Shown: piece after piece, positions 5,949-46,335 of the stretch | Numbering within the stretch: the stretch's first letter is position 1 | How the letters are laid out: every line of letters starts with the position of its first letter | NCBI GenBank assembly: GCA_025916675.1 | Contig: CP098402.1 | Coordinates: 55,205 to 119,204, forward strand | DNA from: Phycisphaera sp. | Lineage (GTDB): Bacteria; Planctomycetota; Phycisphaerae; Phycisphaerales; UBA1924 | Reading direction: 5' to 3' | Length of the DNA stretch: 64,000 nucleotides | Notes under the pieces: generated by a model | The model's input: only the letters and a program-made list of their open reading frames with translations | Database searches by the model: none | What the model was told of the DNA's origin: nothing | Program-made: the position numbers and the translations under genes

Positions 5949-6085
5949 GACGGGCTCCCTATCGATGGGCGCGCGGCCCAATACCAAACCATCGGTCCGA
6001 AAAGCACCGGGGTTGATCTGGAGTGGTCGATCGGGTTGTGCGGGGGCCGGTGTCCGGCTATCGGACGGGCCAGCGGCCAGAGAAA

Positions 6086-6169
6086 TGCCCAGGAGAGGAC
6101 TCGAACCTCCACCCTGTTTCCAGGACTACCACCTCAAGGTAGCGCGTCTGCCAGTTCCGCCACCTGGGC
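6086..6169 (-). tRNA. tRNA-Leu (anticodon GAG)
   Basis: Reverse complement reads GCCCAGGTGGCGGAACTGGCAGACGCGCTACCTTGAGGTGGTAGTCCTGGAAACAGGGTGGAGGTTCGAGTCCTCTCCTGGGCA. 7-bp acceptor stem, anticodon stem CTACC/GGTAG with loop TTGAGGT, long variable arm typical of Leu, T-loop GGTTCGAGTCC. CCA is not encoded. Confidence 0.9.
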
Positions 6170-6287
6170 AAAGAGGGGCGAGCCGGGATTCCCGGCGCGG
6201 GGTGAGCATAGCGACCGAGCCGTCGGCTGTCGAGCGTACCATGCGCATCGCACGCTCGGCACCGCCGACCAAGCCTGAGGAGGGCCC

Positions 6288-6788
6288 ATGCCCCAGTCCG
6301 GATCGACCTCCAGCGCCGCCCCCGCGGCCTTCGCCACCCTGCTCGACAACGTCCGCCAGAAGGCCGACAAGGCCGGCGTGTTCGCTAGTTGCGAGGTGGC
6401 CGATGGCCGGCTCGACTGCCGGGCCGATGGGTCGGCCGAGCAGGCCTGGTACCGCGTGCGCTGGGATGGTGGCAAGGTGTGGGTCGCACTCGAGATGGCC
6501 GACAGGTGGCAGAGCGAGTCGATCGAGGCCGAGCTGGTCCACTCGGGCGACAAGCTCGACGAACTGATCGAAGAGGAGATGGTCGACCTGGGCTACGAGG
6601 GCCCGCGGCCGACCTTCGAGCACTTCCGGTCCGACGACATGCTGTTCACGTTCCGCTCACCCGCGAACGTGCCGGCCGACGCGTTCGACAGCGAAAACAG
6701 CAGCAACGCCGTGGCGTTGCTGCTGCTTGGCTACGAGGCGTGCTTCCGCCAGCTTGGTGATATGAACGCCGAGAACGACGAAGAGTAA
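6288..6788 (+). CDS. Hypothetical acidic cytoplasmic protein
   Basis: 166-aa ORF with strong GC3 bias and no recognisable motif (…WYRVRWDGGKVWVALEMADRWQSESIEAELVHSGDKLDELIEEE…). Confidence 0.55.
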   Translation: MPQSGSTSSAAPAAFATLLDNVRQKADKAGVFASCEVADGRLDCRADGSAEQAWYRVRWDGGKVWVALEMADRWQSESIEAELVHSGDKLDELIEEEMVDLGYEGPRPTFEHFRSDDMLFTFRSPANVPADAFDSENSSNAVALLLLGYEACFRQLGDMNAENDEE

Positions 6789-6855: not shown

Positions 6856-7158
6856 TCACGAATCGCCGATCGAGCCGCCGTCTTCGATAAACTTCTGCTG
6901 ATCTTCGGCCAGCTTCTGCCGCTCGGCCTCGGTCTGTTGCGGCGCCGGGGTTGGCGTCACGACCTGACCCTGGCTGTTGCGAACCGGCCCGCCAAACGGC
7001 GAAGGGATAAGCCCGGTCTGCATGCCAATAAACACGCCGGCGACAACGAACAGCACGCCGGCGACGGCGCCCTTGATGACCTTGGGGTTCGGACCCGACG
7101 ACTTCGGCTTCTGGGTACTCGGATCCTTGACATCGATACCGTCGAGCAATGAAGACAT
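6856..7158 (-). CDS. Small single-pass membrane protein (paralog 2 of a tandem pair)
   Basis: 100 aa. MSSLLDGIDV...GPNPKVIKGAVAGVLFVVAGVFIGMQTGLIP...FIEDGGSIGDS. Collinear similarity to ORF 7255..7563. Confidence 0.6.
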   Translation of the reverse strand: MSSLLDGIDVKDPSTQKPKSSGPNPKVIKGAVAGVLFVVAGVFIGMQTGLIPSPFGGPVRNSQGQVVTPTPAPQQTEAERQKLAEDQQKFIEDGGSIGDS

Positions 7159-7254
7159 CAGATAACCTCCTCGCGAGGGGCCGGTGTTGGCCGGTCCGCT
7201 GTGGGATCCGGGCTGCTCAAGCTATCGGTCGGACACAACCCGGCCGGTGTGATC

Positions 7255-7563
7255 TCAGGAGCCGCCGATGGTTCCGCCGCGGCGGATGAATTCTTCCTCT
7301 TCCTGCTTGAGCCTCTCGGTGTGCTCCTTCACCTCGGCATCAGACGGCGGGACGTATTCAACCGACTCGCCTTGCTTGTTGGTGACGGAATCTCCACCCC
7401 ACGGGGCGGGGATGATGCCGAAGTTCATGGCCAGGACGACGGCGGCGAGCAGGAATAGCACGCCCGCGATGGCACCCTTGATGACCTTCGGGTTGGGGCC
7501 GCCGGAGGAACTGGAAGAACTGCTGTTGTCCGCGACATCGATGCCGTCGAGAAGTGATGACAT
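7255..7563 (-). CDS. Small single-pass membrane protein (paralog 1 of a tandem pair)
   Basis: 102 aa. MSSLLDGIDV...GPNPKVIKGAIAGVLFLLAAVVLAMNFGIIP...FIRRGGTIGGS. Same architecture as 6856..7158. Confidence 0.6.
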   Translation of the reverse strand: MSSLLDGIDVADNSSSSSSSGGPNPKVIKGAIAGVLFLLAAVVLAMNFGIIPAPWGGDSVTNKQGESVEYVPPSDAEVKEHTERLKQEEEEFIRRGGTIGGS

Positions 7564-7707
7564 GGGGAGCCTCCGATTCGGTTCGTGCCGGGAACTGGAT
7601 AGCCCGGGCTTTCGTGTACGGCGGGAACGACCGCCATCCGACCGCTGATTTTAGTCGGACCCTGACAGGAATATGCTACGCAAATCGTGGCCAGCGGTTT
7701 TGCGGGA

Positions 7708-9063
7708 TTACCCTACATCCCGGCGTTGGAACAGCGCGATCGCGAGCGACAGGAACGCGCCGATCTGCAAGACGGCGTAACCGGCGATCTTGAGTAGGTG
7801 CGAGGTTGGCACGTCCCTGTTCTGCGTGACGGCGTCGAGCAGCCAGTAGTAATGCATGTTTGGCACCACGGCCCACAGGGTGGCCGCGAGCGGTTCGACG
7901 TGGGTCGGTGTCGTAAAGACGTAGTCTTCGCGTTCTGGAGCACGAAAGAGGCCGAGGGGGTTACGTCCGATATTTTGCACCGTGAGCCGTTTACCGTCGG
8001 CGTCCAGAATCACGAGGCCGGTGGGCGTGCCGGCCTCGAACAGGGTGGGTGTGTCGGTATGGTCGCCCTCGAAGGGCTCGAAATTGCCGGTGACCAGGGC
8101 CATGCCGTTGGGGTTGGGGCCGTAATAGAAGGGGTCGCCCGGATCGACTTCGATGCGGGGCGGCTCCTTGAGCGTGACCTCCATGATGGCCCCCCTGCTC
8201 GAGGGGTCGTCGCTGCCGGTTTCGGCGGGCTGGGCCTGCGCGACCACGCCGACGATGTCATTGCTGAAGGCCTGGCGGCCCAGGAAGTAGTTCGAGAGCA
8301 GGCCGCCCAGGAATACGCCGGCGCAGACCACGATGGTCATGACCTGGCCCAACCGTGTGGAGGCCGCCGTCGCTACCGAGGCCAGCACGAGGATGGCCAG
8401 CACCATGGCCGAGCACGCCGTGATGATCTTGAAGGGGAGGTCGGTGGTGATGGGCTGGATCTCCCACTTCTTGGAGACCAACAGCACGCCGAGATAGGCC
8501 AGCAGCACCAAGGGCAGCATGGCGGTGACGGCGGTCTGGTTGAACGACCAGCCGTACATGAAGTTGCCCGCTGCGGCCAGCAGCAGCGACCCGATGACCG
8601 CCCCGAACCCGAAGAGGATGACCGGCATGTCGAGGTGGTCGCCGGCGGTCGAGAGCACGCCGTGGCGGATGGCCAGCAGCAGGAAGGCCAGCATGATGAT
8701 GACAGCGCCGGTGATGGCACCGGCGACGCCCAGGTACTTGCCCAGGACGACCCACCCGCGGGCGATGGGCTTGCTGACCACGGTGAGCATGGTCTTGCGG
8801 TCGATCTCGCTCGAGATGACGGCGGTGGCAAGGAACGCCGCCATGAGGACGCCGGCCCCGAAGATGGTCGCTAAGCCCACGTCCAGCAAGAGTTTATTGT
8901 CGCCGTAGACCTCGGCCGAACTGCTTCGACCCATGCTGAAGGCGGCCGTCCAGGTGTTGAAGATCTGGAGGAGCCCGCTGATGAGCACCAGCAGCAGGAG
9001 GATGGGCTGACGCACGCTCTCGACGAAGGTGTTGCGGGCGATGGTGAAGAGCTGGCTGAGCAT
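7708..9063 (-). CDS. ABC-2-type permease-like membrane protein with large extracytoplasmic insert
   Basis: 451 aa. N-terminus MLSQLFTIARNTFVESVRQPILLLLVLISG is typical of ABC-2/NosY-like permeases. Multiple TM helices, and a roughly 150-aa soluble insert before the last helices. No ATPase gene adjacent on this strand. Confidence 0.6.
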   Translation of the reverse strand: MLSQLFTIARNTFVESVRQPILLLLVLISGLLQIFNTWTAAFSMGRSSSAEVYGDNKLLLDVGLATIFGAGVLMAAFLATAVISSEIDRKTMLTVVSKPIARGWVVLGKYLGVAGAITGAVIIMLAFLLLAIRHGVLSTAGDHLDMPVILFGFGAVIGSLLLAAAGNFMYGWSFNQTAVTAMLPLVLLAYLGVLLVSKKWEIQPITTDLPFKIITACSAMVLAILVLASVATAASTRLGQVMTIVVCAGVFLGGLLSNYFLGRQAFSNDIVGVVAQAQPAETGSDDPSSRGAIMEVTLKEPPRIEVDPGDPFYYGPNPNGMALVTGNFEPFEGDHTDTPTLFEAGTPTGLVILDADGKRLTVQNIGRNPLGLFRAPEREDYVFTTPTHVEPLAATLWAVVPNMHYYWLLDAVTQNRDVPTSHLLKIAGYAVLQIGAFLSLAIALFQRRDVG

Positions 9064-9388
9064 GGGCCTCCCCGTCGTGGTCGATCGGTTGCCGATTCGG
9101 GCTTGCGGCGGACGAGCGTGGCAATGATTCGCCCCGGATGGCCCTCGGGGTCGGTCCGGGCTGCTATTTTATTGCCCCCCGGGTGCGAACCCCGGGCGTG
9201 GCGGTTCGTAGCTGCCTGGTGCGCCTATCGGGTTCTGGCCTATCGGCGTGGCTTGGGGAGGGCGGCGAGAGAGCGAGTTGCGGATCGACCCACGCGCGTG
9301 TGGAAAGCACGGGCTCTGGGCGTGAGAATGGGCAGGTTCTTGTCTGGGGCCGCACTGGCTGGAGCGTCATTGTCTGGAGCACCATTGG

Positions 9389-11506
9389 ATGTCGGGTGAT
9401 TTCAATACCTACAAGCGTGCGGCCAGCCACAGCATCCTGGGGCTGGTGTTCCAGGGCGTGTTCGGCGTGGGGCTGCTGGTGTACGGCATCGTGGGCCGCG
9501 AGCCCACGGCGATCACCGGGGCGATCTTCGCGCTGATCGGCCTCTTGCCCTGGATCGTGCTGCTGATCTTGTTCGACCAGCACCGCCGCGAACGCATCGA
9601 GGCGATGGAAGCCGAGGCGTTCGCCGCCACCGACGCGGCGACGTCGTCCGTGTTCGACGAGGCCGAGGGCGGGCTGCGCGTCGCCGGCCGGCGGCTGAAG
9701 CTGGTCCGGACGATCGCCATCCCCGCGATCGGGCTGGTGTTCGGCGCGGCGCTCATCCTGGCTGGTGCCCTGCGCGTCCTGCCGGGCAGGGAGCTGGCCG
9801 ATCCTGATAATTTTGTCGCCCCGCCGCATGAGCTGGTCGGCTTGACCATCGGCCTCGCGGTCGCGGTCATCGGCTTCATGTTCAGCCGGTACACGGCTGG
9901 CATGGCCAAACGCCCGGCGTGGCAGGCGCTGCAAGGCGGCGCGACAATCGCGGCGGGCACGGCCCTGTTCGGCTTGCTGATCGGCGTGGGCCACGTGGTC
10001 GACCAGCTCGGCACCAACGACGTGATCCGGGCGATGCTCTACGTCTCGCCCGTCCTGCTCGTGGTGTTCGGGGCCGAGGCGATCCTAAACTTCCTGCTCG
10101 AGCTGTATCGCCCGCGGAAGCCCGACGAGGGGTTCCGCCCGCCGTTTGCCTCTCGGCTGCTGGGCCCGGTTGCCGCGCCCGAGATGGTGGCCGAGTCGGT
10201 CAGCGGGGCGATCGATTACCAGTTTGGCTACGAGGTGTCTCGGAGTTGGATGTACCGGCTGCTCACGCGGCGCGCGTGGGTGCTGGTGCTGTTCGCGGGC
10301 CTGCTGGTCTGGTTTATGTCGGCGTTCGTGGTGGTGCGACCCGATCAGAAGGGCATCCACACGCGCTTCGGGCGTGTCGTCCAGGCCAATGTGCAACCCG
10401 GGCTTCGACCGAAGCTGCCCTGGCCGATCGATCGCATCGAGGTTCCCGGGTTCTACGAGCGCGACGATAATCGCCAGCCAAGGCTGACGGGGTACTCCAC
10501 GAGCACGGTGCGCGAGATCCTTGGTGCCAGCGCAAAGCGGGCGATCGACGTGAACGCGTACCTGTGGACCAACCTGCAGGCCGAGAACGAGTCGACGATG
10601 CTCGTGCAGCCCTCGCGCGGTGAGGTCGAGGCTGGTTCGGAGGTCGAGTTTGGCCGAGACTTGAGCATGCTGCGCGTCGAGGTTCCGGTGCGGTACACCA
10701 TCGACGACGTCGAGGCGTGGGACCTGTTTACTCAGGACGGCGCGCACCTGGACATGCTCGACCGCCTGACGCAGAAGGTCGTGATGCGATACCTCGTTCG
10801 CACACGCGTGGACGAGCTGCTGGGGGCCAAGCGTGCGGAGATGGCCGGCGAGATCCGCGAGCGGCTCGAGCGCGAGTTCATCGCGGCCAACCCCAAGCAG
10901 AACGGCGAGCCGGTGGTTCGTATCCTGTCGGTGGGCGTGGCGGGCGTATCGCCGCCGGCGGCGGTGGCGTTGCAGTTCGGCCAGGTGGTCGAGCAGGAGC
11001 AGAAGTACCAGGCGCAGCTCAACGCGGCCCAGGCCGAGGCGATCCGCTCGCTGACCGAGGTCGTGGGTTCGGTCGAGCTGGCCGACGAGATCGTCGCCGA
11101 GATCGACGCCCTGGGTCGGTTGCAGGCCCAGCGCGACGCCGAACTCGACGAGCAGCTCGAAGACAGCATCATCGAGCAGGAACTGAAGATCGACGGCTTG
11201 CTGGCCGACGCGGGCGGGCAGGCGGCCTCGCTGATCGCCGATGCCCAGGCGCAGCGTTGGGAGCGGCACATGGGCCAGTGGGGCGAGGCACAGCTGGCCA
11301 TGGGCCAGGCCACGGCCGACCGGGCCAACCGCCCCTACTTCCGGGCGCAGCTCTATCTCGAACGCTTCTTCAGCGCGCTCGATGGGAAGCGCGTGATGAT
11401 CGTGCCAGGCGGCGGCATCGTGTCCATTGAATTCGACGGCACGCACGACCGGCAGTCGGGCGCTGTCTTGCAGGACGATTTCTCTCCGTCTTCGGGCGAC
11501 AACTGA
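9389..11506 (+). CDS. Polytopic membrane protein with SPFH/band-7 domain
   Basis: 705 aa. About 300-aa multi-TM N-terminus, then an SPFH start (VVVRPDQKGIHTRFGRVVQANVQPGLRPKLPWPIDRIEVP). Long coiled-coil tail (QEQKYQAQLNAAQAEAIRSL…), as in HflK/C-type proteins. Confidence 0.7.
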   Translation: MSGDFNTYKRAASHSILGLVFQGVFGVGLLVYGIVGREPTAITGAIFALIGLLPWIVLLILFDQHRRERIEAMEAEAFAATDAATSSVFDEAEGGLRVAGRRLKLVRTIAIPAIGLVFGAALILAGALRVLPGRELADPDNFVAPPHELVGLTIGLAVAVIGFMFSRYTAGMAKRPAWQALQGGATIAAGTALFGLLIGVGHVVDQLGTNDVIRAMLYVSPVLLVVFGAEAILNFLLELYRPRKPDEGFRPPFASRLLGPVAAPEMVAESVSGAIDYQFGYEVSRSWMYRLLTRRAWVLVLFAGLLVWFMSAFVVVRPDQKGIHTRFGRVVQANVQPGLRPKLPWPIDRIEVPGFYERDDNRQPRLTGYSTSTVREILGASAKRAIDVNAYLWTNLQAENESTMLVQPSRGEVEAGSEVEFGRDLSMLRVEVPVRYTIDDVEAWDLFTQDGAHLDMLDRLTQKVVMRYLVRTRVDELLGAKRAEMAGEIRERLEREFIAANPKQNGEPVVRILSVGVAGVSPPAAVALQFGQVVEQEQKYQAQLNAAQAEAIRSLTEVVGSVELADEIVAEIDALGRLQAQRDAELDEQLEDSIIEQELKIDGLLADAGGQAASLIADAQAQRWERHMGQWGEAQLAMGQATADRANRPYFRAQLYLERFFSALDGKRVMIVPGGGIVSIEFDGTHDRQSGAVLQDDFSPSSGDN

Positions 11507-11569
11507 CCTTTCGCGACGGTGATTCCGCGGGCCTGTAGCGGGTCCGACGCAGCAGGAGTGTTTTCTGGC

Positions 11570-12589
11570 ATGGCCAAGACCAAGCTCTTCATAACGTTCG
11601 GCGTGGCGATCCTCTTCGTGGGCGTCCTGGTGGTGTACGCGATGACGTTCACCGTTCGATTCACCGAGGCGGCGGTCGTGACACGCTTTGGCGAGGTCAA
11701 GCAGGAGATCGTCGAGCCGGGCTTGCGAGGCAAGCTGTTCTATCCCATCGAGAGCGTGACCAAGTACGAAACGACGAACCGTTTGTCTCAGGCGCGCATC
11801 GAGACCTACCAGACCCGCGACGATCGGCAGCTGATCGTCGGCGCGTTCGCCATCTGGCGTGTGAAGCCCGAAGAGGTCGGGACGTTCTACCGCAGGTTCA
11901 GCAATTCTGGTCCGCGGGCGGCCGACCATTACAAATCCGCCGCCACGCTTGTCGAGGACTCGCTCCGAAGCGCCATGTCCGAACTCAGCGCGTACTCCAT
12001 GAGCGACCTGTTCACGCCCGACGAGGGGGCCTCGAAGCTCGAAGAGCTCGAAGGACGCGTGCTGGCGCAGATGAAGGACACCCTGGAGGGACAGGGCGAG
12101 CGGGCGTTCGGCATCGAGGTCGTGCAGGCGGGCATCGCTCGCACGAGCCTGCCCCAGACCACGACCGAGGCCGCGCTGGAACGCATGCGTCAGGACCGCG
12201 CCCGGATCGTGACGGGCCTGCAGCAGAGCGGCCAGAGCGAGGCGGGCGCGATCCGCTCGAAGGCCCGGAGCGATGCGAGCAAGATCCTGGAGTTTGCCGA
12301 AGCTCGGGCCCAGCAGATCCGTGCTCGTGGCGACGTGGAGGCGGCGCGCTACCTCAAGCAGATGACCGAGGTGCCCGGGCTGGCCATCTACCTGAAGAAT
12401 CTCGAGTTGCTCGAAGAAGCGATGTTCAGCCGTGCGACGCTGCTGTTCTCGACCGACACGCCCGGCCTGAGCCTGCTGGACCCCTCGCTCTTCCAGACGT
12501 ACGAGCCCGGCGACATCCCCGGCACGGACGTGTTTCTTGGCGAGGACGCGGACGGCGACGCAGCGCGGGAGGGTCGAGGCGATGAGTGA
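11570..12589 (+). CDS. SPFH/band-7 protein (HflC-like)
   Basis: Start ATG 11570 (MAKTKLFITFGVAILFVGVLVVYAM), single N-terminal TM. SPFH core FTVRFTEAAVVTRFGEVKQEIVEPGLRGKLFYPIESV. Coiled-coil EAGAIRSKARSDASKILEFAEARAQQIRARGDVEAARY. Confidence 0.7.
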   Translation: MAKTKLFITFGVAILFVGVLVVYAMTFTVRFTEAAVVTRFGEVKQEIVEPGLRGKLFYPIESVTKYETTNRLSQARIETYQTRDDRQLIVGAFAIWRVKPEEVGTFYRRFSNSGPRAADHYKSAATLVEDSLRSAMSELSAYSMSDLFTPDEGASKLEELEGRVLAQMKDTLEGQGERAFGIEVVQAGIARTSLPQTTTEAALERMRQDRARIVTGLQQSGQSEAGAIRSKARSDASKILEFAEARAQQIRARGDVEAARYLKQMTEVPGLAIYLKNLELLEEAMFSRATLLFSTDTPGLSLLDPSLFQTYEPGDIPGTDVFLGEDADGDAAREGRGDE

Positions 12590-14057
12590 TCCGACCGACA
12601 AGGGGCCGGGCAACCCAACGCCCGAGGGTGGCAAGCCGGGCGATGGCGACTCGCTCGAAGCGATGCTGCCCGCGCTGGGTGAGGACCGATCGAGCGCCGC
12701 ACCGACGCGAGAGGCCTCGGTGCGTCTGCGCACCGATTCCGATACCGGTGAGCAGGCCATCAACGACATGCACGCGGCCAACGAGTCGCTGGCGGCCGCG
12801 TTCCGCACGATGTACCGCATCTTGCAGGTCGCCATCGTGGGGCTCGTGGTCATCTATTTCGCCAGCGGCTTCCGCACCGTGGACGCGGGCGAGGCCGGCA
12901 TCCAGGTGCTGTTCGGGCGCCCCTCGGCCGAGATCTCCCAGTCGGGCATCACGTGGGGGCCGCCCTATCCGCTGAGCCAGCTCGTGCGGGTGCAGACCGG
13001 CCAGCAGACGGTGCAGCTCGAGGCCGAGTTCTGGTTCCGTATAAGCGATCGTGACCGCGGCCGCTCGCTGGAAGAGCTGGCACGTTCGCCGCAGCGATCG
13101 CTCGACCCGCAGCGTGACGGCGCGCTGATCACGAGCGACCAGAACCTCGTCCACACGCAGTGGACGGTGGTTTACCGGCGTGCCGACCCGCGGGAGTTTG
13201 CCAGCAACATCACCCCGGCGGACGAGGAGCAGATCGTGCGGACCGCGGTCGCGCGGGGCGTGATTCGTGCGGTGTCGACGACGGCGATCGATGACTTGCT
13301 GCGGGAGACCGGTGGTGCGGGCGGCGTGGCCGGCCGGGCCCAGAGCATCGCCCAAGAGACCCTTGAGGCCATCGACGCGGGCATCGTGGTCCAGCAGATG
13401 TCGATGCGGGCACGCACGCCGCCGCTGAGCGTGTGGAGCGCGTTCACCGAGGTGCAGACCGCCGAGAGCCAGTCGCAGACGCGGCGCGTCCAGGCCGAGA
13501 GCTTCGCGTCCAACGAGCTCAACCGCGTGGCGGGTGCGGCGGCCCCGGCCATCCTTGAGCAGATCAACCTGTACGAAGCTGCCGTGGAACTCGGTGAGCC
13601 CGAAGAGCAGCAGGTGATCCTGGATCGGATCCACAAGCTCATGGCCGGCGAGCCGGTCGAGATTGACGGCGAGGTGCGTTCGTTCGCGGTCTCGGGAGAG
13701 GTCTCGCAGATCCTCAACAACGCCGAGCAGTTGAGGGTGAAGTCGGCCCTGTCGGCCCAGCTGATCCTCGCGTCGTATCAGGCGAAGCTGCCGTTGTTCC
13801 GCGAGAATCCCGAACTGGTGCTGCAGAGCGACTGGTCGCGGATGATGACGGGGTTCCTGTCGCGGGACATCGTGGAAGTGATCATGCTGCCGCGCGGCCC
13901 GATCAACCTGCTGGTGAACCCCGACCCCGACGTCCGTCGGCTGATCGACGAGATCGCGCAGGAGCGGCTGAACGTGGACGCGGTCGAGCGCCGCCGCCGC
14001 CGCCAGCAAGAGGCACAGTTCCAGACCGATACCGACCTGCGTGAGTTCGGCGGCTGA
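12582..14057 (+). CDS. SPFH/band-7 protein (HflK-like)
   Basis: ATG 12582 overlaps the upstream stop (ATGAGTGA). TM (ILQVAIVGLVVIYFASGF) followed by RTVDAGEAGIQVLFGRPSAEISQSGITWGPPYPLSQLVRV. Long helical C-terminus. Confidence 0.65.
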   Translation: MSDPTDKGPGNPTPEGGKPGDGDSLEAMLPALGEDRSSAAPTREASVRLRTDSDTGEQAINDMHAANESLAAAFRTMYRILQVAIVGLVVIYFASGFRTVDAGEAGIQVLFGRPSAEISQSGITWGPPYPLSQLVRVQTGQQTVQLEAEFWFRISDRDRGRSLEELARSPQRSLDPQRDGALITSDQNLVHTQWTVVYRRADPREFASNITPADEEQIVRTAVARGVIRAVSTTAIDDLLRETGGAGGVAGRAQSIAQETLEAIDAGIVVQQMSMRARTPPLSVWSAFTEVQTAESQSQTRRVQAESFASNELNRVAGAAAPAILEQINLYEAAVELGEPEEQQVILDRIHKLMAGEPVEIDGEVRSFAVSGEVSQILNNAEQLRVKSALSAQLILASYQAKLPLFRENPELVLQSDWSRMMTGFLSRDIVEVIMLPRGPINLLVNPDPDVRRLIDEIAQERLNVDAVERRRRRQQEAQFQTDTDLREFGG

Positions 14058-14081
14058 TTCGACGAAGGAACGGGTATTGGC

Positions 14082-15335
14082 ATGACGCAAACGGCAACCA
14101 AGACGGAGAGCGGGATGACGACTGGCGGGAGCGAGTCGGCCCGCCCGGTCGTCGCCGTTCAGGGTCTGACCAAGAACTTCCGAGACTTCTGGATGCGTTC
14201 GCGCGCCCGAGCGGTCACCGACGTGACCTTCGAGATCAGGCCGCACGAGATTTTCGGATTGCTCGGGCCCAACGGCTCGGGCAAGAGCACAACTATCAAG
14301 GTGCTGCTCGGTTTGCTCAAGCCGACCAAGGGCCGCGTGGCGGTATTCGGCAAGTCTCCCAGCGATGTGCGGATCAAGAAACGCATCGGGTACCTGCCCG
14401 AAGAGAGCTACTTGTACCCGTTCTTGAACGCGCGTGAGACGCTGGACTATTACGGGCGGCTCTTCGGGCTCGACCACAGCACCCGCCAGAAGCGCATCGA
14501 CGAGTTGCTCGACATGGTGGGGCTCAAGGCGGCACAGTTCCGGCAGGTGCGCGAGTATTCCAAGGGCATGCAACGCCGAATCGGGTTGGCGCAGGCGCTC
14601 ATCAACGATCCCGATTTGCTCATCCTCGACGAGCCGACGACCGGGCTCGATCCCATCGGCACGCGGCAGGTGAAGGACCTGATCGTCGAGATGGGCCGCC
14701 GCGGCAAGACCGTGCTGCTCTCGAGCCACCTGCTTGCCGATGTTGAAGACGTAGTCGACCGCATGGTCGTGCTCTACGGCGGACGCATCCGCCAGGAGGG
14801 CACACGCGACGAGTTGCTCCAGGCCACCGACCGGACCACGATCGAAACCGACACGCTCGACGAGCAGACCTTGGCCGAGATCGATGAGGTCATCCGGCGT
14901 CGCAGCGGTGGAGCGAAGGCCGTCCAGCGGGTGTCCCATCCGCGTCAGAAGCTGGAAGAACTGTTCCTCAAGATCGTTGAGGATGCCCAGGCCGAGCGTC
15001 TGGAGACAGCCGGGGCTACGCACGGTGGCATGACGGCGGACTTCCTGCGGTCGCAGACGGAAGCCGAGAAGCCAGCCGAGGGCGAAGCGCTCATCAGCGA
15101 CCTTGTTCGCGAGGAGCCCGAGCCGCAAGCGGAAACTGCGCCCGAAGCCGCGGCCGAGCCCGAGGCCGTCGACGATGCCGTGGTCGAGGACCTGCTCGAA
15201 GACGAGCCCAAGCCCAAGGCGGCCGAGGTTGACCCGGCCGTTGACCTTGGCATGATCGGCTCGCTCATGGACGACCCCGATGGTGACGATCCCGATGCGG
15301 ACGATTCGCCCGAGAAGCGGGGCGGCGCGCGATGA
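14082..15335 (+). CDS. ABC transporter ATP-binding protein with acidic C-terminal tail
   Basis: Walker A GPNGSGKST, signature YSKGMQRRIGLAQA, Walker B LLILDEPTTGLD, H-loop SSHLL. About 130-aa Glu/Asp/Ala/Pro-rich tail. Confidence 0.9.
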   Translation: MTQTATKTESGMTTGGSESARPVVAVQGLTKNFRDFWMRSRARAVTDVTFEIRPHEIFGLLGPNGSGKSTTIKVLLGLLKPTKGRVAVFGKSPSDVRIKKRIGYLPEESYLYPFLNARETLDYYGRLFGLDHSTRQKRIDELLDMVGLKAAQFRQVREYSKGMQRRIGLAQALINDPDLLILDEPTTGLDPIGTRQVKDLIVEMGRRGKTVLLSSHLLADVEDVVDRMVVLYGGRIRQEGTRDELLQATDRTTIETDTLDEQTLAEIDEVIRRRSGGAKAVQRVSHPRQKLEELFLKIVEDAQAERLETAGATHGGMTADFLRSQTEAEKPAEGEALISDLVREEPEPQAETAPEAAAEPEAVDDAVVEDLLEDEPKPKAAEVDPAVDLGMIGSLMDDPDGDDPDADDSPEKRGGAR

Positions 15336-17302
15336 GCCGGCTGTGGGCTCGCATCGACCGGTTGCAGAAGTCTCGCGGGTTCAAGATCGTCGCGTCGGTG
15401 CTGATGCTGGCTCTCGCGATCGCCGGGGGCATCACGTACCTCGCGATCTCGAATTCGGACGCGCGGGCCAGTGACAACATCGAGTTTTTTGACACGTCGG
15501 CCATCGAAGATGCCGAGATGCGGGCCCAGATCGAGCGGCAGCAAAGAATCATCCAGAACGTGCTGGCCCAGGACCGGAGCCCGGTCGCCGTCACGCTGGG
15601 GCTCGTGCTGGCCCTGGGCTTGAGTCTGGTCATCATCTGGCTTGGCCTTTACCTGACGTACCTGTTGCTGTTTGCCGGGGTGGCGCTCATCGCGGGCCCG
15701 ATGCTCTTGATGGTCCAGTACGAGCGCGCCGGTCCGAACGTTGAAGCGCTCGCGCACATCATCATTGGCGCAACGCTGCTGACGTTTGCCTTCACCGCCG
15801 TCTTGGAGATTCTCCGGCTGCTGCTGTCGGTCGCTTCCGGCCCGGTCTTCGCCGTGGCGCGGAACGTGCTGGCCGAGGCGGTGCGCATGAAGATCTCGCT
15901 GGTCTTCATCGTGCTGCTCATCCTGGGGCTGGCGGCCGTGCCGATGCTGCTGAACGAGGGCACGCCCCTGCGGTATCGGATGCAGTCGTTCCTGCAATAT
16001 GGCACGGCCGGCGCGTTCTGGATGATCGCGATCCTGACGCTGCTGCTCTCGGTGGCGACGCTCAGCTTCGAGCAGCGGGATCGGATCATCTGGCAGACCA
16101 TGACCAAGCCCGTGTCGGTGTGGAAGTACCTGCTGGGCAAGTGGCTGGGCGTGGTCACGCTCAACGCGGCGCTGCTGCTGGTGTGCGGGGCGGGCATCTT
16201 CATGTTCGCCGAGTATCTCCGCCAGCAGCCGGCCGACGGCGAACGCGAGGCGTACGTCGCGCGTGGGGTCGAGCTGGGGTCCGGGGCCATCAGCGAGGAC
16301 CGGCGCATCCTGCACAACCAGGTGCTGCAAGCCCGTGTGGCCCGTGGCATCGACATGCCGATCACCAAGAATGGCGAGGAATTCGACGCGATCGTCGACC
16401 AGTTCATCACGCAGCGCGAGGCGCTCGACTCGTTCAACGAGATGGTCCAGGAGGACCAGACCCGCACGCAGGTGCGCGATGATTTGTACAAGGACTTTAC
16501 GATCCGGCTGCGATCGATCGATCCCGGCCAGCCCAAGACGTACACCTTCAGCGGGCTCGAGAAGGCCGCCCAGCAGGACGCGCCGCTGCTGCTGCGGTAC
16601 CGGGTGGAGTCGGGTGCCAACCTGCCCGACGAGTTCTACCGCATCTTTTTCGACGCGGGCGGGTTCCAATACGAACGCGAGGTGGGCCTCGCCCAGACGC
16701 TCATCATCGACGACATCCCGCCGTCGGCTATCAACGAGGACGGCACGCTCGAGCTGACGATCATCAACGGGACGCTCGTTGAGGGTCGAAACGGCGAGAT
16801 CGGCGTCATGGGCAACCCCAAGACCATCACCTTCCCGCCCGGTGGGCTCGAGCTGAGCTACAGCGTGGGCAGCTATCGCATGAACTTCGTGCGCGTGGTG
16901 GTGGTGCTCTGGATCAAGCTGGCGTTCCTGTCGCTGCTGGCCATCGCCGCCTCGACGGCGCTGAGCTTCCCGGTGGCCTGCCTGGTGGCGTTCGGGGCGT
17001 TCTTTGCGGCCGAGAGCGCGATGTTTCTGGAAGACTCGCTCGAGGTGTACAACCCTTTCTTCGGCGAGGGCATCGGGCCGGCCATCCTGGCGGTGGTCGA
17101 GACAATCTCGGCCGCGGTGATCTGGATCTTCCGCGTGTACGCCGAATTGAACCCAACCGATAAGCTGGTGCAGGGCGAGTATGTATCTTGGGGCAGCGTG
17201 GCTCAGGGCATGGTCGTCCTGGGCTTCTGGTGTGTGGTGCTGTTCGGGGCCGGCTGGTTCGTGTTCCGCTCGCGTGAGTTGGCGATGTATTCCGGGCAGT
17301 AA
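15332..17302 (+). CDS. Large ABC-2-type permease-like membrane protein with about 250-aa extracytoplasmic insert
   Basis: ATG overlaps the ATPase stop (ATGA). ARNVLAEAVRMKISLVFIVLLILGL parallels the N-terminal motif of the 7708..9063 protein. Multiple TM helices flank a soluble insert (…DRRILHNQVLQARVARGIDMPITKNGEEFD…TLELTIINGTLVEG…). Confidence 0.6.
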   Translation: MSRLWARIDRLQKSRGFKIVASVLMLALAIAGGITYLAISNSDARASDNIEFFDTSAIEDAEMRAQIERQQRIIQNVLAQDRSPVAVTLGLVLALGLSLVIIWLGLYLTYLLLFAGVALIAGPMLLMVQYERAGPNVEALAHIIIGATLLTFAFTAVLEILRLLLSVASGPVFAVARNVLAEAVRMKISLVFIVLLILGLAAVPMLLNEGTPLRYRMQSFLQYGTAGAFWMIAILTLLLSVATLSFEQRDRIIWQTMTKPVSVWKYLLGKWLGVVTLNAALLLVCGAGIFMFAEYLRQQPADGEREAYVARGVELGSGAISEDRRILHNQVLQARVARGIDMPITKNGEEFDAIVDQFITQREALDSFNEMVQEDQTRTQVRDDLYKDFTIRLRSIDPGQPKTYTFSGLEKAAQQDAPLLLRYRVESGANLPDEFYRIFFDAGGFQYEREVGLAQTLIIDDIPPSAINEDGTLELTIINGTLVEGRNGEIGVMGNPKTITFPPGGLELSYSVGSYRMNFVRVVVVLWIKLAFLSLLAIAASTALSFPVACLVAFGAFFAAESAMFLEDSLEVYNPFFGEGIGPAILAVVETISAAVIWIFRVYAELNPTDKLVQGEYVSWGSVAQGMVVLGFWCVVLFGAGWFVFRSRELAMYSGQ

Positions 17303-17385
17303 CCCGGCGCGATCCGGTAGCTAATGGCCGGCGTAGCAGTGGTGGGCGCGTTGCGAGGCCCGAAGAACTTTGGAGGCGCTGAGCC

Positions 17386-19350
17386 ATGCCGCAGGGCAGA
17401 TTGACGCAATTAATCGCCGTGGTGGTGTGCCTTGCCTTGCTCGGCCTGTCCGGGCTGGTCTCGGCCGACCTCACGGCCTCGGCCGGCCGCCACAAGCTCA
17501 CCTACACCGAGCGCGCCGAAGAGGGCGACCCCCCGCAGGTGGCCCTGGGCATCGCGATGGGGGCCTTCCGCGGGCTGTTCGTGAACATCCTGTGGATCCG
17601 TGCCAACGAGCTCAAGGAAGAGGGCAAGTACTACGAGGCGGTCGACCTGGCGCGTGCGATCACGCGGTTGCAGCCGCGCTTCCCGCAGGTGTGGGCCTTC
17701 CACGCCTGGAACATGGCGTACAACATTTCGGTGACCACCAACACCGAGACCGAGCGGTGGAACTGGGTGAGCCAGGGCATCGACCTCTTGCGGATGGAGG
17801 GCGTCAAGCACAACCCGACGGACATGGTGGTGCACAAGGAGCTGGCGTGGCTGTTCCTGCACAAGGTGCAGGCCTTTGCCGACGACGCGCACTGGTATTA
17901 CAAGCTGCAACTGGCCGGCGAGTGGCACGAGCTCCTGGGCCCGCCGCCGATGCCCGACCCCGGCAACAACAAGCGTGAGGTCCGAATCGCGCTCTTCGAG
18001 GAGTGGCTGCAGCCCATCGTCGAAGCGCCCGAGACGCTGGATCGGGTCATCGAAGAGAATCCGAAGGTGGGCGAGCTCGTCGATCGACTGGCGGCGCTCG
18101 ACATCGATCCCACCGGGCAGCAGTTGCTCAAGACGACTACGCGGGTGCGCATGGCCCGGGCCTCGGCGGTGTGGCCCGAGCTGCGCGAATCGGGCGACCA
18201 GCGATTCCGCGACACGACCGAGTTGGTCCACGATCCCGAGTTCGCCGAGGCATTGGAGGACCTGCTGGCCTTCACGCGTCGCAAGGTGCTGATCGAGGAC
18301 TTTAACATGGAGCCGCGGCGGATGCTGCGGTACACCAGTACCTATGGCCCGCTCGACTGGCGCCACCCCGCGTCCCACGCGTTGTACTGGGGCCAGAAGG
18401 GCGTCGAGGGCGGCATGACCCGCATCGATGCGGTGAACCTGCAGGACTACGACTTCATCAACACCGATCGCCTCGTGGTCCAATCGATCCAGGAGCTCTG
18501 GCGCACCGGCGGCCTGTGGTTCGACTACAACGCCATGATGCTCAACCGTGGTGACCGGCGGCCGTTCTACCTTGGCATCCCCGATCCGGCGTACATCCCG
18601 GTGTACGGCGAGATCCTGCGGGACGTGATCGAGCGCAGCTACTACGACGGCGAGGAGCGGGCGTACAGCTCGTATTCGGCGGGCTACGAGAACATGATGA
18701 AGGACGCGATCCGGTTCATTTATCGGCGCGGCGATGTGGAACGTGCCAGGCAGATGAAGAACGAACTCGCGAACTTCGATATTGCCAACCTCAACGACCC
18801 GCGACGGGCGCAGTGGCTGGCGCAGGACATCGACCGGTTCGTGCGGGCCGAACTGGAGAACCGCTTGGGCTCGCCCTCGGTGGCGCTCCAGGAGATCGTG
18901 GGCTCGCTCAACGACGCGATCCTGACCGGCCTGATCGGCGGCGATGACGAGATCTTCGAGTCGAGCATCCAGTACGCCAAGGAGTACCACGCGGCCTATA
19001 CCGAGCAGCAGGTCCGCGAGAGCGCCGCTGGCACGGGACGCATGGAGTTCCTCGACCGCCGCTTCGACTTCGTGGTCGGGCAGGTGTTCGCCAACATCTT
19101 GCCGTTGCTCCAGATTGATCTTGCCCAGCGTGGCTATTACAACGCGCCGCCCGAGCTGCGAAAGTGGGCGTACGACCAGATGGTGATGCGATTCAAGCCG
19201 CTGTTCGACGACGAGGAGGGCAACGCGTTCGTCGATGGGCGCAGCTTCGACACGGTCTTCCCCGAGCCCGAGGGCATGCCGGCCTTCCGCGCGATGCTCG
19301 ACCGCGAGTTCGGCGAGCGCGGGCGGGACCTCGACCAGGAGCAGAAGTAG
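17386..19350 (+). CDS. Membrane-anchored helical-repeat hypothetical protein
   Basis: 654 aa. N-terminal TM/signal (LIAVVVCLALLGLSGLVSA). Trp/Tyr-rich helical body (FVNILWIRANELKEEGKYYEAVDLARAITRLQPRFPQVWAFHAWNMAYNISV). Last gene of the co-directional SPFH/ABC block. Confidence 0.6.
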   Translation: MPQGRLTQLIAVVVCLALLGLSGLVSADLTASAGRHKLTYTERAEEGDPPQVALGIAMGAFRGLFVNILWIRANELKEEGKYYEAVDLARAITRLQPRFPQVWAFHAWNMAYNISVTTNTETERWNWVSQGIDLLRMEGVKHNPTDMVVHKELAWLFLHKVQAFADDAHWYYKLQLAGEWHELLGPPPMPDPGNNKREVRIALFEEWLQPIVEAPETLDRVIEENPKVGELVDRLAALDIDPTGQQLLKTTTRVRMARASAVWPELRESGDQRFRDTTELVHDPEFAEALEDLLAFTRRKVLIEDFNMEPRRMLRYTSTYGPLDWRHPASHALYWGQKGVEGGMTRIDAVNLQDYDFINTDRLVVQSIQELWRTGGLWFDYNAMMLNRGDRRPFYLGIPDPAYIPVYGEILRDVIERSYYDGEERAYSSYSAGYENMMKDAIRFIYRRGDVERARQMKNELANFDIANLNDPRRAQWLAQDIDRFVRAELENRLGSPSVALQEIVGSLNDAILTGLIGGDDEIFESSIQYAKEYHAAYTEQQVRESAAGTGRMEFLDRRFDFVVGQVFANILPLLQIDLAQRGYYNAPPELRKWAYDQMVMRFKPLFDDEEGNAFVDGRSFDTVFPEPEGMPAFRAMLDREFGERGRDLDQEQK

Positions 19351-19354
19351 ATCG

Positions 19355-20323
19355 CTACTCGGTGAGCAGACGCAAGGCGGTCTCGTACCGCTCGGCGGTC
19401 TGGGCGATAACGCCCTGGGGCAGATCCGGCCCGGGGGCGCTCTTGTCCCATGCGCCCTTGCCGACGAGCTCGCTCAGGTACTCGCGCACGAATTGTTTGT
19501 CGAAGCTGGGCTGGGCGTGGCCCGGCTCGTACTGGTCGGCCGGCCAGAATCGCGAGCTATCGGGCGTGAGCGCCTCGTCGGCCAGCATCGGCTCGCGCGA
19601 GCCCTTGTCGTGGTCGAGGGGGAAGGCGAACTCGAACTTGGTGTCGGCCAGGATGATGCCGCGCTCGGCCGCGTGCCGGGTGGCGGCGGCGTAGATCGCC
19701 AGCGAGCGTTCCTTGAGATCGCCGACGAGGTCGGCGCCGAGCATCTTCGAGGCCTCAGCGACCGAGATGGGCTCGTCGTGCTCGGGCGGCTCGGCCTTGG
19801 TGCTGGGCGTGAAGATCGGCTCGGGCAGGCGGTCGCACTGCCTGAGACCATTGGGTAGCTCGACGCCGCTCACGGCGCCGCTGCTCTGGTAGTCCTTCCA
19901 CCCCGAGCCTTCGAGATACCCGCGCACGACGCACTCGAGCTTGATGATGTCGCCCCGCCTTGCGATGGTGGTGCGGCCGGCCAGGTCGGCCGGGCCGCTG
20001 GCGGGGTCGGTGGCGTCGGGCAGGTCGAAGGCCGAGGTGGGCAGGTCGGCCTGGTCGCTAATGAAGTGGGTGGGGCCCAGGCCCTTAGCTTCGAGCCATC
20101 GGAACCACCAGGACGACAGGGCCGTCAGCACGCGGCCCTTGCCGGGGATGGGCGTGGGCAGCACGACGTCGAAGGCCGAGAGCCGGTCGGTGGCAACGAT
20201 GGCCACGCGGCCGTCGCCCAGGTCGTAGACCTCCCGGACCTTGCCGCGGTGCAGCAGCGGGAGGGCGAGGCGGGTTTGGGCTATGGTGGCCCCCTTGGAC
20301 GGCTCGGCGCGTGGCATGGCCAT
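19355..20323 (-). CDS. purC: Phosphoribosylaminoimidazole-succinocarboxamide (SAICAR) synthase
   Basis: LLHRGKVREVYDLGDGRVAIVATDRLSAFDVVLPTPIPGKGRVLTALSSWWF and ILADTKFEFA motifs. Start placed at ATG 20323 (20317 is equally possible). The longer ORF extension overlaps the divergent gene. Confidence 0.85.
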   Translation of the reverse strand: MAMPRAEPSKGATIAQTRLALPLLHRGKVREVYDLGDGRVAIVATDRLSAFDVVLPTPIPGKGRVLTALSSWWFRWLEAKGLGPTHFISDQADLPTSAFDLPDATDPASGPADLAGRTTIARRGDIIKLECVVRGYLEGSGWKDYQSSGAVSGVELPNGLRQCDRLPEPIFTPSTKAEPPEHDEPISVAEASKMLGADLVGDLKERSLAIYAAATRHAAERGIILADTKFEFAFPLDHDKGSREPMLADEALTPDSSRFWPADQYEPGHAQPSFDKQFVREYLSELVGKGAWDKSAPGPDLPQGVIAQTAERYETALRLLTE

Positions 20324-20413
20324 ATGGTAGAGAGCGTGGCCCAAGGTGAGGCCCGAAGGCCGGTGTGGCCACTTCTTGGCCCAATGGTTGGCCCCTTGGA
20401 GAGACGCAGGCGG

Positions 20414-22060
20414 ATGCTGAAGTTCTTCGTGCATCGCGATGGTGGCCCGGCTGATGGCTGGCCGTTGGCCCACGCGGGCATCGTCGCGGCCGACGGGGCG
20501 ACGGCCCCAGGCGAGGTCCGCATCGAGCACGGCGTCCTGACCGTGGCGCCCACGAACACTGGTCCTGTGTCGCTCGAGGTGCTGTTTCCGTTAGGCCAGG
20601 GCGAGATTGGCCCGAGGCCCGAGCGAGAAGTGCTGCTGACGACGACACTGCTGCCCCAGCGGGAGTGGCCCTACCTGCTCTCGCTCGAGCTCGCCCGCAA
20701 GCAACTCATGCGGTTCCTTAATGCGCTGGAAGAATGGAACCTGGCCATGCTGCCGGCCGACCATCCGGCGCTGGTGACGTTCGAGCGGGCCCGGGAAGAC
20801 TTCTCGGCGGCCCTGGTGTCGTGGCGGAGCGTGCAGAAAGAAGGCCTGGAGGCCGACGACCCGGACATCGTCGCGGCGGAGGAGAAGTCGCGCCGTGCGC
20901 TGCGGGACGCGGCCGAAGCCAGCGAGTTGCTGGTGGTCCAGGCGGTCGCCGAAGGGTTGGCCGCGCGGGCCGACGGCTCGTGGTTCAGCGATGCCATGGA
21001 GCGGGCCGAGCGGTCCATCGGCCGGCCCGCGGGCAAGCCCGTGGCGGTGGTCAAGGCGCCCGAGGCCCACGGCGTGACGCTGGCGGGCGTGGCCCGCGTG
21101 GGGTGCGCGGTCGATCCGAACGGCTTCGAGCCTCCAGCGCAGGCGGCGCTGGTCAAGGCGGCCGATTTCATCACCGTGCCCATGCCCTGGTCGTCCATCG
21201 AGCCGGCCGAGGGCAAGTACCAGTATGCCGCGACCGATCGGTGGATCGAGTGGGCCGTGCGCAAGGGCAAGCTGCCCGTGGTGGCCGGCCCGGTACTCGA
21301 CCTGGGGCCTGGCAAGCTACCCGAGTGGCTGTTCATCTGGGAGAACGACTACGACACGCTGCGTGAGCTGGTGTACGAGCACGTGCGGCAGGTGGTCACG
21401 CGGTACCGCCGGACCGTGCAGTGGTGGACGCTCGCGTCGTCGCTGGGCGTGGAGGGCGCGCTGTCGCTGCGGTTCGAGCAGATCGCCGACCTGCTGCGGG
21501 TGGCCTCGATGGTGACACGCAAGCTCCAGCCCCAGGGCCGGGTGCAGGTGGAGGTGGTCGACCCATTCGCGCTGTACGCGGCTCGTTCGCAGCGATCGGT
21601 GCCGCCATTACTTCTGGCCGAGTTGATCGCCCAGAGCGGCACGCATGTGGACGCCATCGGTTTGCGTGTCGACCTGACCGACGCGAGCACCGCCGCGGCC
21701 GTGCGCGACGCGATGGCGTTCTCGGAGGTGCTCGACCGCTATGCGGCACTCGACCGGCCGATCTCGGTGACGTTTGCCGCCTGCCCCTCGAAGCCCACCG
21801 GGACCGAGGACGAGAGCGGCGCGTGGGACGGCGCGTGGTCTGCCCAGGTGCAGGCCGATTGGATCACCCGCACGATGGCGGTGGCGGCGGCCAAGCCCTA
21901 CGTCCATTCGGTGTGCTGGGGGCTCGCGCAAGACACCGCGAGGACCGTTGGCGGTACCGGGCTCGTCGACGCGGGCGGGACACCCAGGCCCGGGCTGGCG
22001 GCGATGGCTGGCTTGAGGCAGGCCGTGCGCTCGGGCGTGCAGGGTGGAGGCCAAGGGTGA
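20414..22060 (+). CDS. Hypothetical protein with C-terminal glycoside-hydrolase-like (GH10-like TIM barrel) region
   Basis: Start ATG 20414 (MLKFFVHRDGG). The C-terminal half has a GH10-reminiscent pattern (VPMPWSSIEPAEGKYQYAATDRWIEWAVRKGK, LPEWLFIWENDYD, THVDAIGLRVDL). Family assignment is weak. Confidence 0.5.
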   Translation: MLKFFVHRDGGPADGWPLAHAGIVAADGATAPGEVRIEHGVLTVAPTNTGPVSLEVLFPLGQGEIGPRPEREVLLTTTLLPQREWPYLLSLELARKQLMRFLNALEEWNLAMLPADHPALVTFERAREDFSAALVSWRSVQKEGLEADDPDIVAAEEKSRRALRDAAEASELLVVQAVAEGLAARADGSWFSDAMERAERSIGRPAGKPVAVVKAPEAHGVTLAGVARVGCAVDPNGFEPPAQAALVKAADFITVPMPWSSIEPAEGKYQYAATDRWIEWAVRKGKLPVVAGPVLDLGPGKLPEWLFIWENDYDTLRELVYEHVRQVVTRYRRTVQWWTLASSLGVEGALSLRFEQIADLLRVASMVTRKLQPQGRVQVEVVDPFALYAARSQRSVPPLLLAELIAQSGTHVDAIGLRVDLTDASTAAAVRDAMAFSEVLDRYAALDRPISVTFAACPSKPTGTEDESGAWDGAWSAQVQADWITRTMAVAAAKPYVHSVCWGLAQDTARTVGGTGLVDAGGTPRPGLAAMAGLRQAVRSGVQGGGQG

Positions 22061-42323: not shown

Positions 42324-42545
42324 CACACTCAACTACGCCCGCCCCACGCCCGATATCGGGGGCACGGGCATTCTTGTTTGTCATAGTGCCCAAGATATTT
42401 TTCCGAACGGCGGGGCCGCTTCCCTTTTGCCCAGTTGGGGGGAGCGGCCCTGGTCGTTTGGTGGGCGTGGGTGCCAGGCCCCCAAGGCCATCAGCCCGAC
42501 CATCAACCCAAACATTCGCCGGATCGATACGAACAGAAAACAACC

Positions 42546-42573
42546 CCGTAACCTTCGGGTACGGTTTTCTTTC
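42546..42573 (+). terminator. Possible rho-independent terminator
   Basis: CCGTAACC-TTCG-GGTACGG hairpin (one bulged A) followed by TTTTCTTTC. Lies about 280 nt after the RAYT stop, so the assignment is tentative. Confidence 0.35.
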
Positions 42574-42587
42574 GCTCGGAAATGATT

Positions 42588-42797: not shown

Positions 42798-42849
42798 GCC
42801 GCGTGGCCCCGCGGTCAAGTCCCGTTGCCTTCGGTCCGATTACCAGGGC

Positions 42850-44703: not shown

Positions 44704-46335
<1,632 letters not shown>

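Follow-up and report, generated by a model that had tools for sequence, protein, structure and literature searches.

Which membrane machinery do SPFH proteins serve when their genes are linked to those of an ABC transporter? To our knowledge, the FtsH protease is the only structurally defined client of bacterial SPFH cages, and the question is raised by a nine-gene cluster (positions 6856-19350) found in a 64-kb stretch of the genome of Phycisphaera sp. (contig CP098402.1, positions 55,205 to 119,204), this whole stretch being hereafter called the window. The cluster combines three SPFH genes with those of an ABC ATPase, two ABC-2-like permeases, a membrane-anchored helical protein and two small membrane proteins. 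Seven of these genes recur in the same order in Planctomycetota and Verrucomicrobiota, at protein identities down to 25-30%. Our leading interpretation, on which our own judgement is evenly balanced, is that these seven conserved genes encode one inner-membrane machine, in which a cage of the HflK/C type would be built around transporters, possibly for metal handling.

Organization of the cluster

Genes were called by open reading frame (ORF) listing and third-position GC (GC3) frame analysis over the 64-kb window, whose G+C content is about 67%. The features of the cluster are listed below (aa, amino acids; TM, transmembrane; CDF, cation diffusion facilitator; NBD, nucleotide-binding domain).

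6856-7158, minus strand: sm1, 100-aa single-pass membrane protein
7255-7563, minus strand: sm2, 102-aa single-pass membrane protein
7708-9063, minus strand: ABC2div, 451-aa ABC-2-type permease, NosY-like
9064-9388, no strand: divergent intergenic region of 325 bp, presumed bidirectional promoter region
9389-11506, plus strand: polySPFH, whole gene, from ORF listing and GC3
9389-10264, plus strand: polySPFH N-terminal domain (aa 1-292), predicted 6-TM CDF-like bundle and basic cytoplasmic segment
10265-11506, plus strand: polySPFH C-terminal part, with TM7, predicted periplasmic SPFH domain and long coiled coil
11519-12589, plus strand: SPFH_C, HflC-like single-pass SPFH protein, Band_7
12582-14057, plus strand: SPFH_K, HflK-like SPFH protein, Band_7
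14082-15335, plus strand: ABC ATPase, DrrA/GldA/NodI-like NBD with acidic tail
15332-17302, plus strand: perm656, ABC-2-like permease, paralog of ABC2div
17386-19350, plus strand: hel654, predicted N-terminally anchored all-alpha solenoid

The stop codon of SPFH_C overlaps the start of SPFH_K by 8 nt (ATGAGTGA at 12582-12589) and that of the ABC ATPase overlaps the start of perm656 by 4 nt (ATGA at 15332-15335), the remaining co-directional gaps being 12, 24 and 83 nt. The nine genes, both overlaps and the 325-bp divergent spacer thus stand at the positions given in a first-pass annotation of this DNA, made from the sequence without database searches. A candidate alternative start of SPFH_C is ATG 11570 instead of GTG 11519, homologs leaving residues 1-8 unmatched.

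Within the divergent spacer, the blocks GTGGCAATGATTCGCCC, CTATTTTATTGCCC, TTCGTAGCTGCC and GCGTGAGAATGGGC are identical in a related locus (L006), and a 19-nt direct repeat (beginning TTGTCTGG) is found at 9340 and 9370, directly before the polySPFH start. These blocks and the repeat are candidate promoter or operator elements. Scans for promoters (sigma-70 consensus) and terminators returned matches at or below shuffle expectation, and a search of Rfam gave no matches in the window.

Conservation across two phyla

Related loci (L001-L087) were searched with the nine window proteins, the genome loci being the best 80 kept, and their taxonomy was taken from metagenome-assembled genome labels, protein names and assembly records. 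Sixty-six of them have enough flanking DNA for gene-order counts. All seven core genes (the cluster without sm1 and sm2) are present in 65 of these 66 loci and strictly colinear in 62; the three exceptions in order are ORF-boundary artefacts, and one locus lacks the last two genes. ABC2div adjoins polySPFH in 65/66 loci, its orientation being divergent in 62 and co-directional in 4, and hel654 is the terminal gene of the cluster in 65/66.

Homologs of polySPFH are distributed in Phycisphaerae and other Planctomycetota, matches being found in more than 583 species genomes of the collection searched, while a profile built from the most distant ones retrieved more than 3,200 proteins, of which the named ones belong to Verrucomicrobiota, including Pedosphaera. 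In two Verrucomicrobiota assemblies and one contig of the same subfamily (L086, L087 and L005), the genes form a single co-directional operon in the order ABC2, polySPFH, SPFH, SPFH, P-type ATPase, ABC ATPase, permease, hel, and the core proteins except the ATPase are shorter, judging from gene-call lengths. Clustering of the remaining neighbouring ORFs revealed no further conserved family around the cluster, and the module therefore consists of exactly these genes.

The two small genes fall outside it. Sm1 has one TM segment (aa 25-53) and no match in Pfam, NCBIfam or PADLOC, and it is a paralog of sm2 (E 1e-28), so the first-pass annotation was right about the paralogy and single-pass topology of this pair. 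Its inclusion of the pair in the system did not hold: among the 87 loci, sm1 and sm2 are conserved solely in L006, the closest relative examined, and both were rejected as core components.

No characterised system of such composition was found in Pfam, NCBIfam, PADLOC, the PDB or the full-text literature, and no description of the module was found in the survey of prokaryotic SPFH operons (PMC2636767) or in a gene-content study of the PVC superphylum (PMC3542564). The earlier statement that an SPFH triplet coupled to an ABC system was undescribed thus agrees with the curated families and literature searched. An anti-phage defence system was considered and rejected, PADLOC giving only generic ABC/AAA matches for the ATPase and nothing for the other eight proteins. 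The first-pass annotation had reasoned that a gene order confined to close relatives, SPFH assignments failing profile searches or a match to a characterised family would speak against a new system. None of the three was found: the complete gene set is kept in 65/66 loci, in two phyla and far beyond close relatives, and the SPFH profiles hold as described below.

Three SPFH paralogs of the HflK/HflC branch

A profile search with Pfam Band_7 (PF01145), the check suggested for the three SPFH calls, placed all of them above the gathering score of 23.6 bits (polySPFH 32.9, SPFH_C 64.3 and SPFH_K 59.1 bits). The labels HflC-like and HflK-like were likewise borne out by the best PDB matches, which are E. 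coli HflC for SPFH_C (7vhp_G, 2.9e-17) and E. coli HflK for SPFH_K (7vhp_E, 2e-16). Canonical HflK/HflC membership was rejected, since neither protein reaches its equivalog cut-off in NCBIfam: SPFH_C scores 80.5 bits vs 134.4 for hflC (TIGR01932) and SPFH_K 77.4 bits vs 159.4 for hflK (TIGR01933), the latter model giving 47.1 bits for polySPFH.

Hydropathy and the positive-inside rule predict a single N-terminal TM helix for SPFH_C and SPFH_K, preceded in SPFH_K by a cytoplasmic N-terminus of ~75 aa, with the SPFH domain and coiled coil in the periplasm. The same orientation is predicted for polySPFH via seven TM helices, TM7 (aa ~291-318) leading into an SPFH domain with inserts (aa 315-551) and a long coiled coil. 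Its top Foldseek matches are HflK, HflC, stomatin, erlin and prohibitin (E 4.6e-10 to 1e-4).

The closest known counterpart is the E. coli HflK/HflC-FtsH complex (7vhp, 7vhq, 7wi3, 9paw), whose paired K and C genes encode proteins with a single N-terminal TM helix followed by an SPFH domain and coiled coil in the periplasm, and which provides the best sequence and fold matches of the module SPFH proteins. The principle that we propose to be shared is a periplasm-facing SPFH cage enclosing an ATP-driven membrane machine. By contrast, the module has three paralogs, one of them with a fused 6-TM CDF-like domain, in the order C then K, all of this at scores below the equivalog cut-offs, and its genes are linked to those of an ABC-2 transporter and in some loci to that of a P1B ATPase, FtsH being encoded 28.5 kb off.

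This resemblance also supports another explanation, which we consider unlikely, namely that SPFH_C and SPFH_K are the HflC and HflK of this lineage acting on FtsH, the ABC system being a substrate, regulator or co-regulated partner of FtsH-dependent quality control outside the cage. The best solved relatives are indeed HflC and HflK, reciprocally, the top NCBIfam matches are the hflC and hflK models, and ftsH lies within the same window. However, the scores on these models are well below the cut-offs, and the third paralog with its fused 6-TM domain is always present. The window copy of ftsH (47904-49961, minus strand) is 28.5 kb from the cluster end, in line with the ~28 kb first reported, and ftsH is absent from all related loci. 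The SPFH genes have stayed linked to the ABC genes in both phyla. In addition, canonical HflK/C proteins are reported to be almost confined to Proteobacteria (PMC2636767).

A putative CDF-derived domain in polySPFH

The first-pass annotation recognized polySPFH as polytopic, which stands, and overlooked the CDF-like nature of its N-terminus. This N-terminal domain contains six TM helices (aa ~6-230), the bundle having a pLDDT of 85-95 in the AlphaFold2 (AF2) model, followed by an invariant basic cytoplasmic segment whose invariant residues are YRPR 240-243, R256, YQFG 277-280 and W287. Foldseek matched it to more than 20 CDF structures (YiiP, ZnT1/3/4/7/8, SLC30A10) with E 1.6e-3 to 0.1 and TM-scores up to 0.58. 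The Pfam Cation_efflux model (PF01545) matched 3 of 16 N-terminal domains, all sub-threshold, with a best E of 4.6e-6 and a score of 21.3 bits for P0106 vs a gathering score of 26.6. Finally, hhalign against a reference alignment of 10 CDF sequences (E. coli FieF and nine plasmid CDFs) gave 92.8% probability and E 4e-7 over 192 columns, with TM1-TM6 in register, controls made of reversed sequences and three unrelated TM families giving at most 1%. Because Foldseek, the sub-threshold Pfam matches and hhalign agree, we conclude that the N-terminus of polySPFH is probably a divergent, CDF-derived but degenerate 6-TM domain.

It shares with the CDFs (YiiP/FieF, ZnT/SLC30) the fold and profile of TM1-TM6 and the same N-in/C-in topology; unlike them, it lacks site A and the C-terminal domain and is fused to TM7 and an SPFH domain. 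The tetrahedral transport site A of CDFs is of the DD-HD or HD-HD type and lies in TM2 and TM5; its residues in FieF (D45, D49, H153 and D157) correspond to F47, G51, I187 and T191 in the window protein, and TM6 is followed by a loop of ~50 aa with no CDF cytoplasmic C-terminal domain. Bona fide CDF membership was rejected on the sub-threshold PF01545 scores, the loss of site A and the lack of the C-terminal domain. An invariant E230 and a frequent N234 were observed in the CDF-like domain, which would act like a scaffold or use other residues such as these two.

One ABC ATPase and two insert-bearing permeases

The ATPase is a standard NBD (Pfam ABC_tran, 113.6 bits) in which the residues of the Walker A, signature, Walker B and H-loop motifs are at least 90% conserved among 66 homologs, and it scores 217.9 bits for DrrA and 207.8 bits for GldA in NCBIfam, both below the family cut-offs. 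The acidic tail reported initially was recovered, the ~115 C-terminal residues being rich in D/E. A post-NBD segment (aa ~287-322, 14940-15047) contains the conserved residues P287 R288 Q289 ... T309 G311 A312 G315 G316 A319 F321 L322 and is followed by the variable, low-complexity acidic tail. This segment may serve for docking, perhaps to the basic loop that is invariant on the cytoplasmic side of polySPFH.

ABC2div passes two Pfam permease models, ABC2_membrane_2 (PF12679; 33.6 vs 27.2) and ABC2_membrane_5 (PF13346; 30 vs 25), and carries an extracytoplasmic insert of ~160 aa before its last TM helix. It has no ATPase gene of its own and so matches its initial description as a second ABC-2-like permease with an external insert. 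Perm656 is sub-threshold for ABC2_membrane_3 and _2 (26.6 vs 31.6), and its residues 170-281 align with residues 3-120 of ABC2div (hhalign, 96.9%), which makes the two permeases paralogs. The permease call for perm656 is thereby upheld, while its extracytoplasmic insert, first estimated at ~250 aa, measures ~220 aa (residues ~298-516) and comes after an N-terminal TM extension of ~170 aa. Both inserts are predicted to be periplasmic by the positive-inside rule, as is hel654. Insert sizes co-vary between the two permeases across loci (Spearman rho 0.79) and correlate with the lengths of SPFH_C and SPFH_K (0.56-0.65), both relations being confounded by phylogeny.

The best PDB match of both permease profiles is NosY (7o0y_D), with E 0.013 for the ABC2div family and E 0.0035 for perm656, whose profile positions 147-268 align with NosY 1-123. 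NosY is thus the top solved relative of both, and the NosDFY(L) copper-delivery complex for N2O reductase (7o0y series) further resembles the module in its ABC-2-type NBD, lack of a substrate-binding protein, periplasmic partner domain and metal context. The module differs in having neither the NosD beta-helix nor NosL nor NosZ in the cluster or among conserved neighbours, in its two different permeases with large inserts and in its SPFH proteins, the NosY matches being weak. NosDFY membership was rejected on the missing NosD/NosL/NosZ context. The GldA/GldF/GldG gliding transporter is also comparable through the GldA model score, an ABC-2 permease and a large extracytoplasmic accessory part. 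No SPFH proteins accompany GldAFG, however, the module ATPase is far below the GldA cut-off (207.8 vs 402.6), and no GldG/ABC_transp_aux domain was detected in any cluster protein, so that membership was rejected for want of both score and GldG-type auxiliary. As for the term "ABC exporter" used in the first-pass annotation, the ABC transporter is confirmed and its export activity is putative, NosY belonging to a mechanotransducing ABC complex and not to a classical exporter.

A predicted alpha-solenoid without annotated relatives

The membrane-anchored helical protein described at first, hel654, is all helical in its AF2 model (pLDDT 81.5, pTM 0.79), with a solenoid behind an N-terminal anchor. 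Foldseek returned generic TPR matches only (best E 0.013, TM-score at most 0.22), no family was found in Pfam, NCBIfam or the PDB by sequence or profile, and no enzymatic or chaperone family could be assigned. A set of 2,095 homologs was retrieved, all named ones being "hypothetical", and the family counts 1,815 representatives at 50% identity (E <= 1e-10). Hel654 is a predicted periplasmic TPR-like alpha-solenoid of an unannotated family.

A recurrent P1B heavy-metal ATPase

A P1B ATPase, overlooked in the first-pass annotation, often accompanies the cluster in other lineages. On the heavy-metal model TIGR01525 it reaches 537-557 bits. It adjoins or lies inside the cluster in 24/66 loci: in 19 of them it is found upstream of ABC2div, and in the other 5 it separates SPFH_K from the ABC ATPase. 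In all three Verrucomicrobiota-type loci examined it is inside the operon, at the latter position. Examples are located as follows:

L003, 14336-16255: P1B ATPase
L005, 13879-15936: P1B ATPase
L026, 6805-8802: P1B ATPase
21 other loci: P1B ATPase

Most of these sequences contain a CPC motif, they have no N-terminal HMA domain, and their N-terminus is often His-rich (e.g. HEHDHHHHHGDGKGCGHDHEH in L005). The last helix carries a conserved H...S..V.FNSARL and the C-terminus a GE(D/E)LEH. The last-helix signature does not correspond to known subtype motifs for Cu(I) or Zn(II), and by these features the cluster-associated enzyme looks like an unusual subtype.

The P1B ATPase also bears on an alternative to metal handling, in which the module would organise lipids, the ABC-2 transporter flipping or extracting a specific lipid that the SPFH ring confines, with the P1B ATPase and the CDF ancestry being incidental. 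Such a function would suit the many lipid and glycolipid transporters known among ABC-2-type exporters and the association of SPFH proteins with membrane microdomains, as well as the loss of the CDF metal site and the lack of a P1B ATPase in the window cluster. However, no gene for lipid synthesis or lipid binding is present in the cluster, the solved structure closest to the permeases is NosY and not a lipid exporter, and a P1B ATPase that recurs inside the operon would need explaining, making this alternative quite unlikely.

A proposed SPFH enclosure around transporters

The strict synteny and the stop/start overlaps across two phyla lead us to propose a single complex. In this complex, the three HflK/HflC-branch SPFH paralogs would co-assemble into a periplasmic ring or cage of the HflK/C type, which polySPFH would anchor via its degenerate CDF-like 6-TM domain. 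An ABC-2 (NosFY-like) transporter would sit inside or at this enclosure and would comprise an ATPase homodimer and two permease subunits, ABC2div and perm656. We suggest such a heterodimeric transmembrane domain with a homodimeric NBD because one ATPase gene and two paralogous permease genes are found in both phyla. The large periplasmic inserts of the permeases would contact the alpha-solenoid of hel654, and the energy of ATP hydrolysis would be spent on conformational work or on export at the periplasmic face. The P1B heavy-metal ATPase would be part of the machine in many lineages, and the module may handle a divalent or transition-metal cation through efflux, sequestration or envelope delivery. 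This metal-handling step is weakly suggested by the P1B ATPase in combination with the CDF-derived domain and the NosY-like permeases. We infer the cage around the transporter from conserved synteny, predicted topology and the analogy with HflK/C-FtsH.

SPFH scaffolds tied to specific membrane proteins have precedents in the flotillin-associated rhodopsin (PMC10308929) and in human stomatin bound to aquaporin-1 (PDB 9zd2). The kind of system is therefore known, and the composition of the module is new. In stomatin-NfeD, flotillin-associated rhodopsin and stomatin-aquaporin-1, an SPFH scaffold is likewise tied or bound to a specific partner, but the module differs from them in SPFH branch, in membrane side and in partners. 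NfeD partners were reported for SPFH1, SPFH2 and SPFH5 and for none of the other subfamilies in the 2009 operon survey (PMC2636767). Unlike the stomatin-NfeD and flotillin systems, the module comprises seven or eight genes, among them those of an ABC transporter, and has no NfeD, the nine cluster proteins giving no NfeD match in Pfam, as expected from the first-pass annotation.

Several observations weigh against this interpretation. The 87 loci are phylogenetically related and their counts are not independent, and the link between the SPFH proteins and the transporter rests on synteny, predicted topology and analogy. The polySPFH model has a pTM of 0.42, Foldseek matches among helical bundles can be spurious, and the N-terminal profile gave no hhalign signal when compared with E. 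coli FieF alone. Across the family, the site A positions are occupied by F/Y/H, an invariant G, Y/V/F/I and N/A/S/T. Both permeases match NosY weakly, at E 0.0035 and 0.013, and the P1B ATPase is absent from the window and from the clusters of close relatives. The metal link comes from neighbours and ancestry and not from binding sites, since site A is replaced and no conserved His/Cys/Met cluster was found in the permease inserts or hel654.

Stress operons often mix unrelated functions and the contact between SPFH and ABC proteins is itself inferred, but strict order and stop/start overlaps kept over two phyla at 25-30% identity are typical of one complex, which renders it very improbable that the SPFH triplet and the ABC system have no physical contact and are merely co-transcribed in a common envelope-stress response. 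A more specific form of the enclosure model appears possible, though doubtful, to us: an unrecognised machine widespread in Planctomycetota and Verrucomicrobiota, in which a hetero-oligomeric, periplasm-facing SPFH cage whose wall includes a CDF-derived TM domain would contain an ABC-2 transporter, joined in the ancestral form by a P1B ATPase, forming a closed membrane/periplasm compartment for a metal cation.

Neighbouring genes and other features of the window

The cluster is preceded by cheR and a tRNA-Leu gene and is bounded by purC after hel654. The surrounding features are:

6085-6170, minus strand: tRNA-Leu (GAG), between cheR and the 166-aa ORF, the only tRNA of the window
6288-6788: unannotated 166-aa ORF, bordering the cluster
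19355-20530, minus strand: purC
47904-49961, minus strand: ftsH

Elsewhere in the window, a 668-aa protein of this Phycisphaerales genome (33696-35702, minus strand) contains a complete animal haem peroxidase domain (PF03098, 475.6 bits), and a 773-aa protein (38622-40943, minus strand) combines DUF1028 with FG-GAP repeats. The segment 42000-46000 has a G+C content of 0.58-0.61 vs ~0.67 elsewhere, and two ORFs located there (42278-43153 and 43146-44666, plus strand) failed the GC3 filter of gene calling. This segment, which adjoins groEL (44704-46335), may be horizontally acquired.

Implications for SPFH biology

Besides FtsH, the module provides a second, genetically defined client set for bacterial SPFH cages, made of an ABC-2 transporter, a CDF-like domain fused to an SPFH protein and, in many lineages, a P1B ATPase, and it is conserved in two phyla and represented by thousands of environmental sequences. 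It also provides hel654, perm656 and the CDF-like SPFH fusion, three sizeable families without annotation, with a context, and the idea that SPFH cages enclose and regulate transporters becomes directly testable in bacteria. If the proposed assembly is true, it would be the first bacterial SPFH cage with transporters, and not a protease, as its dedicated clients.

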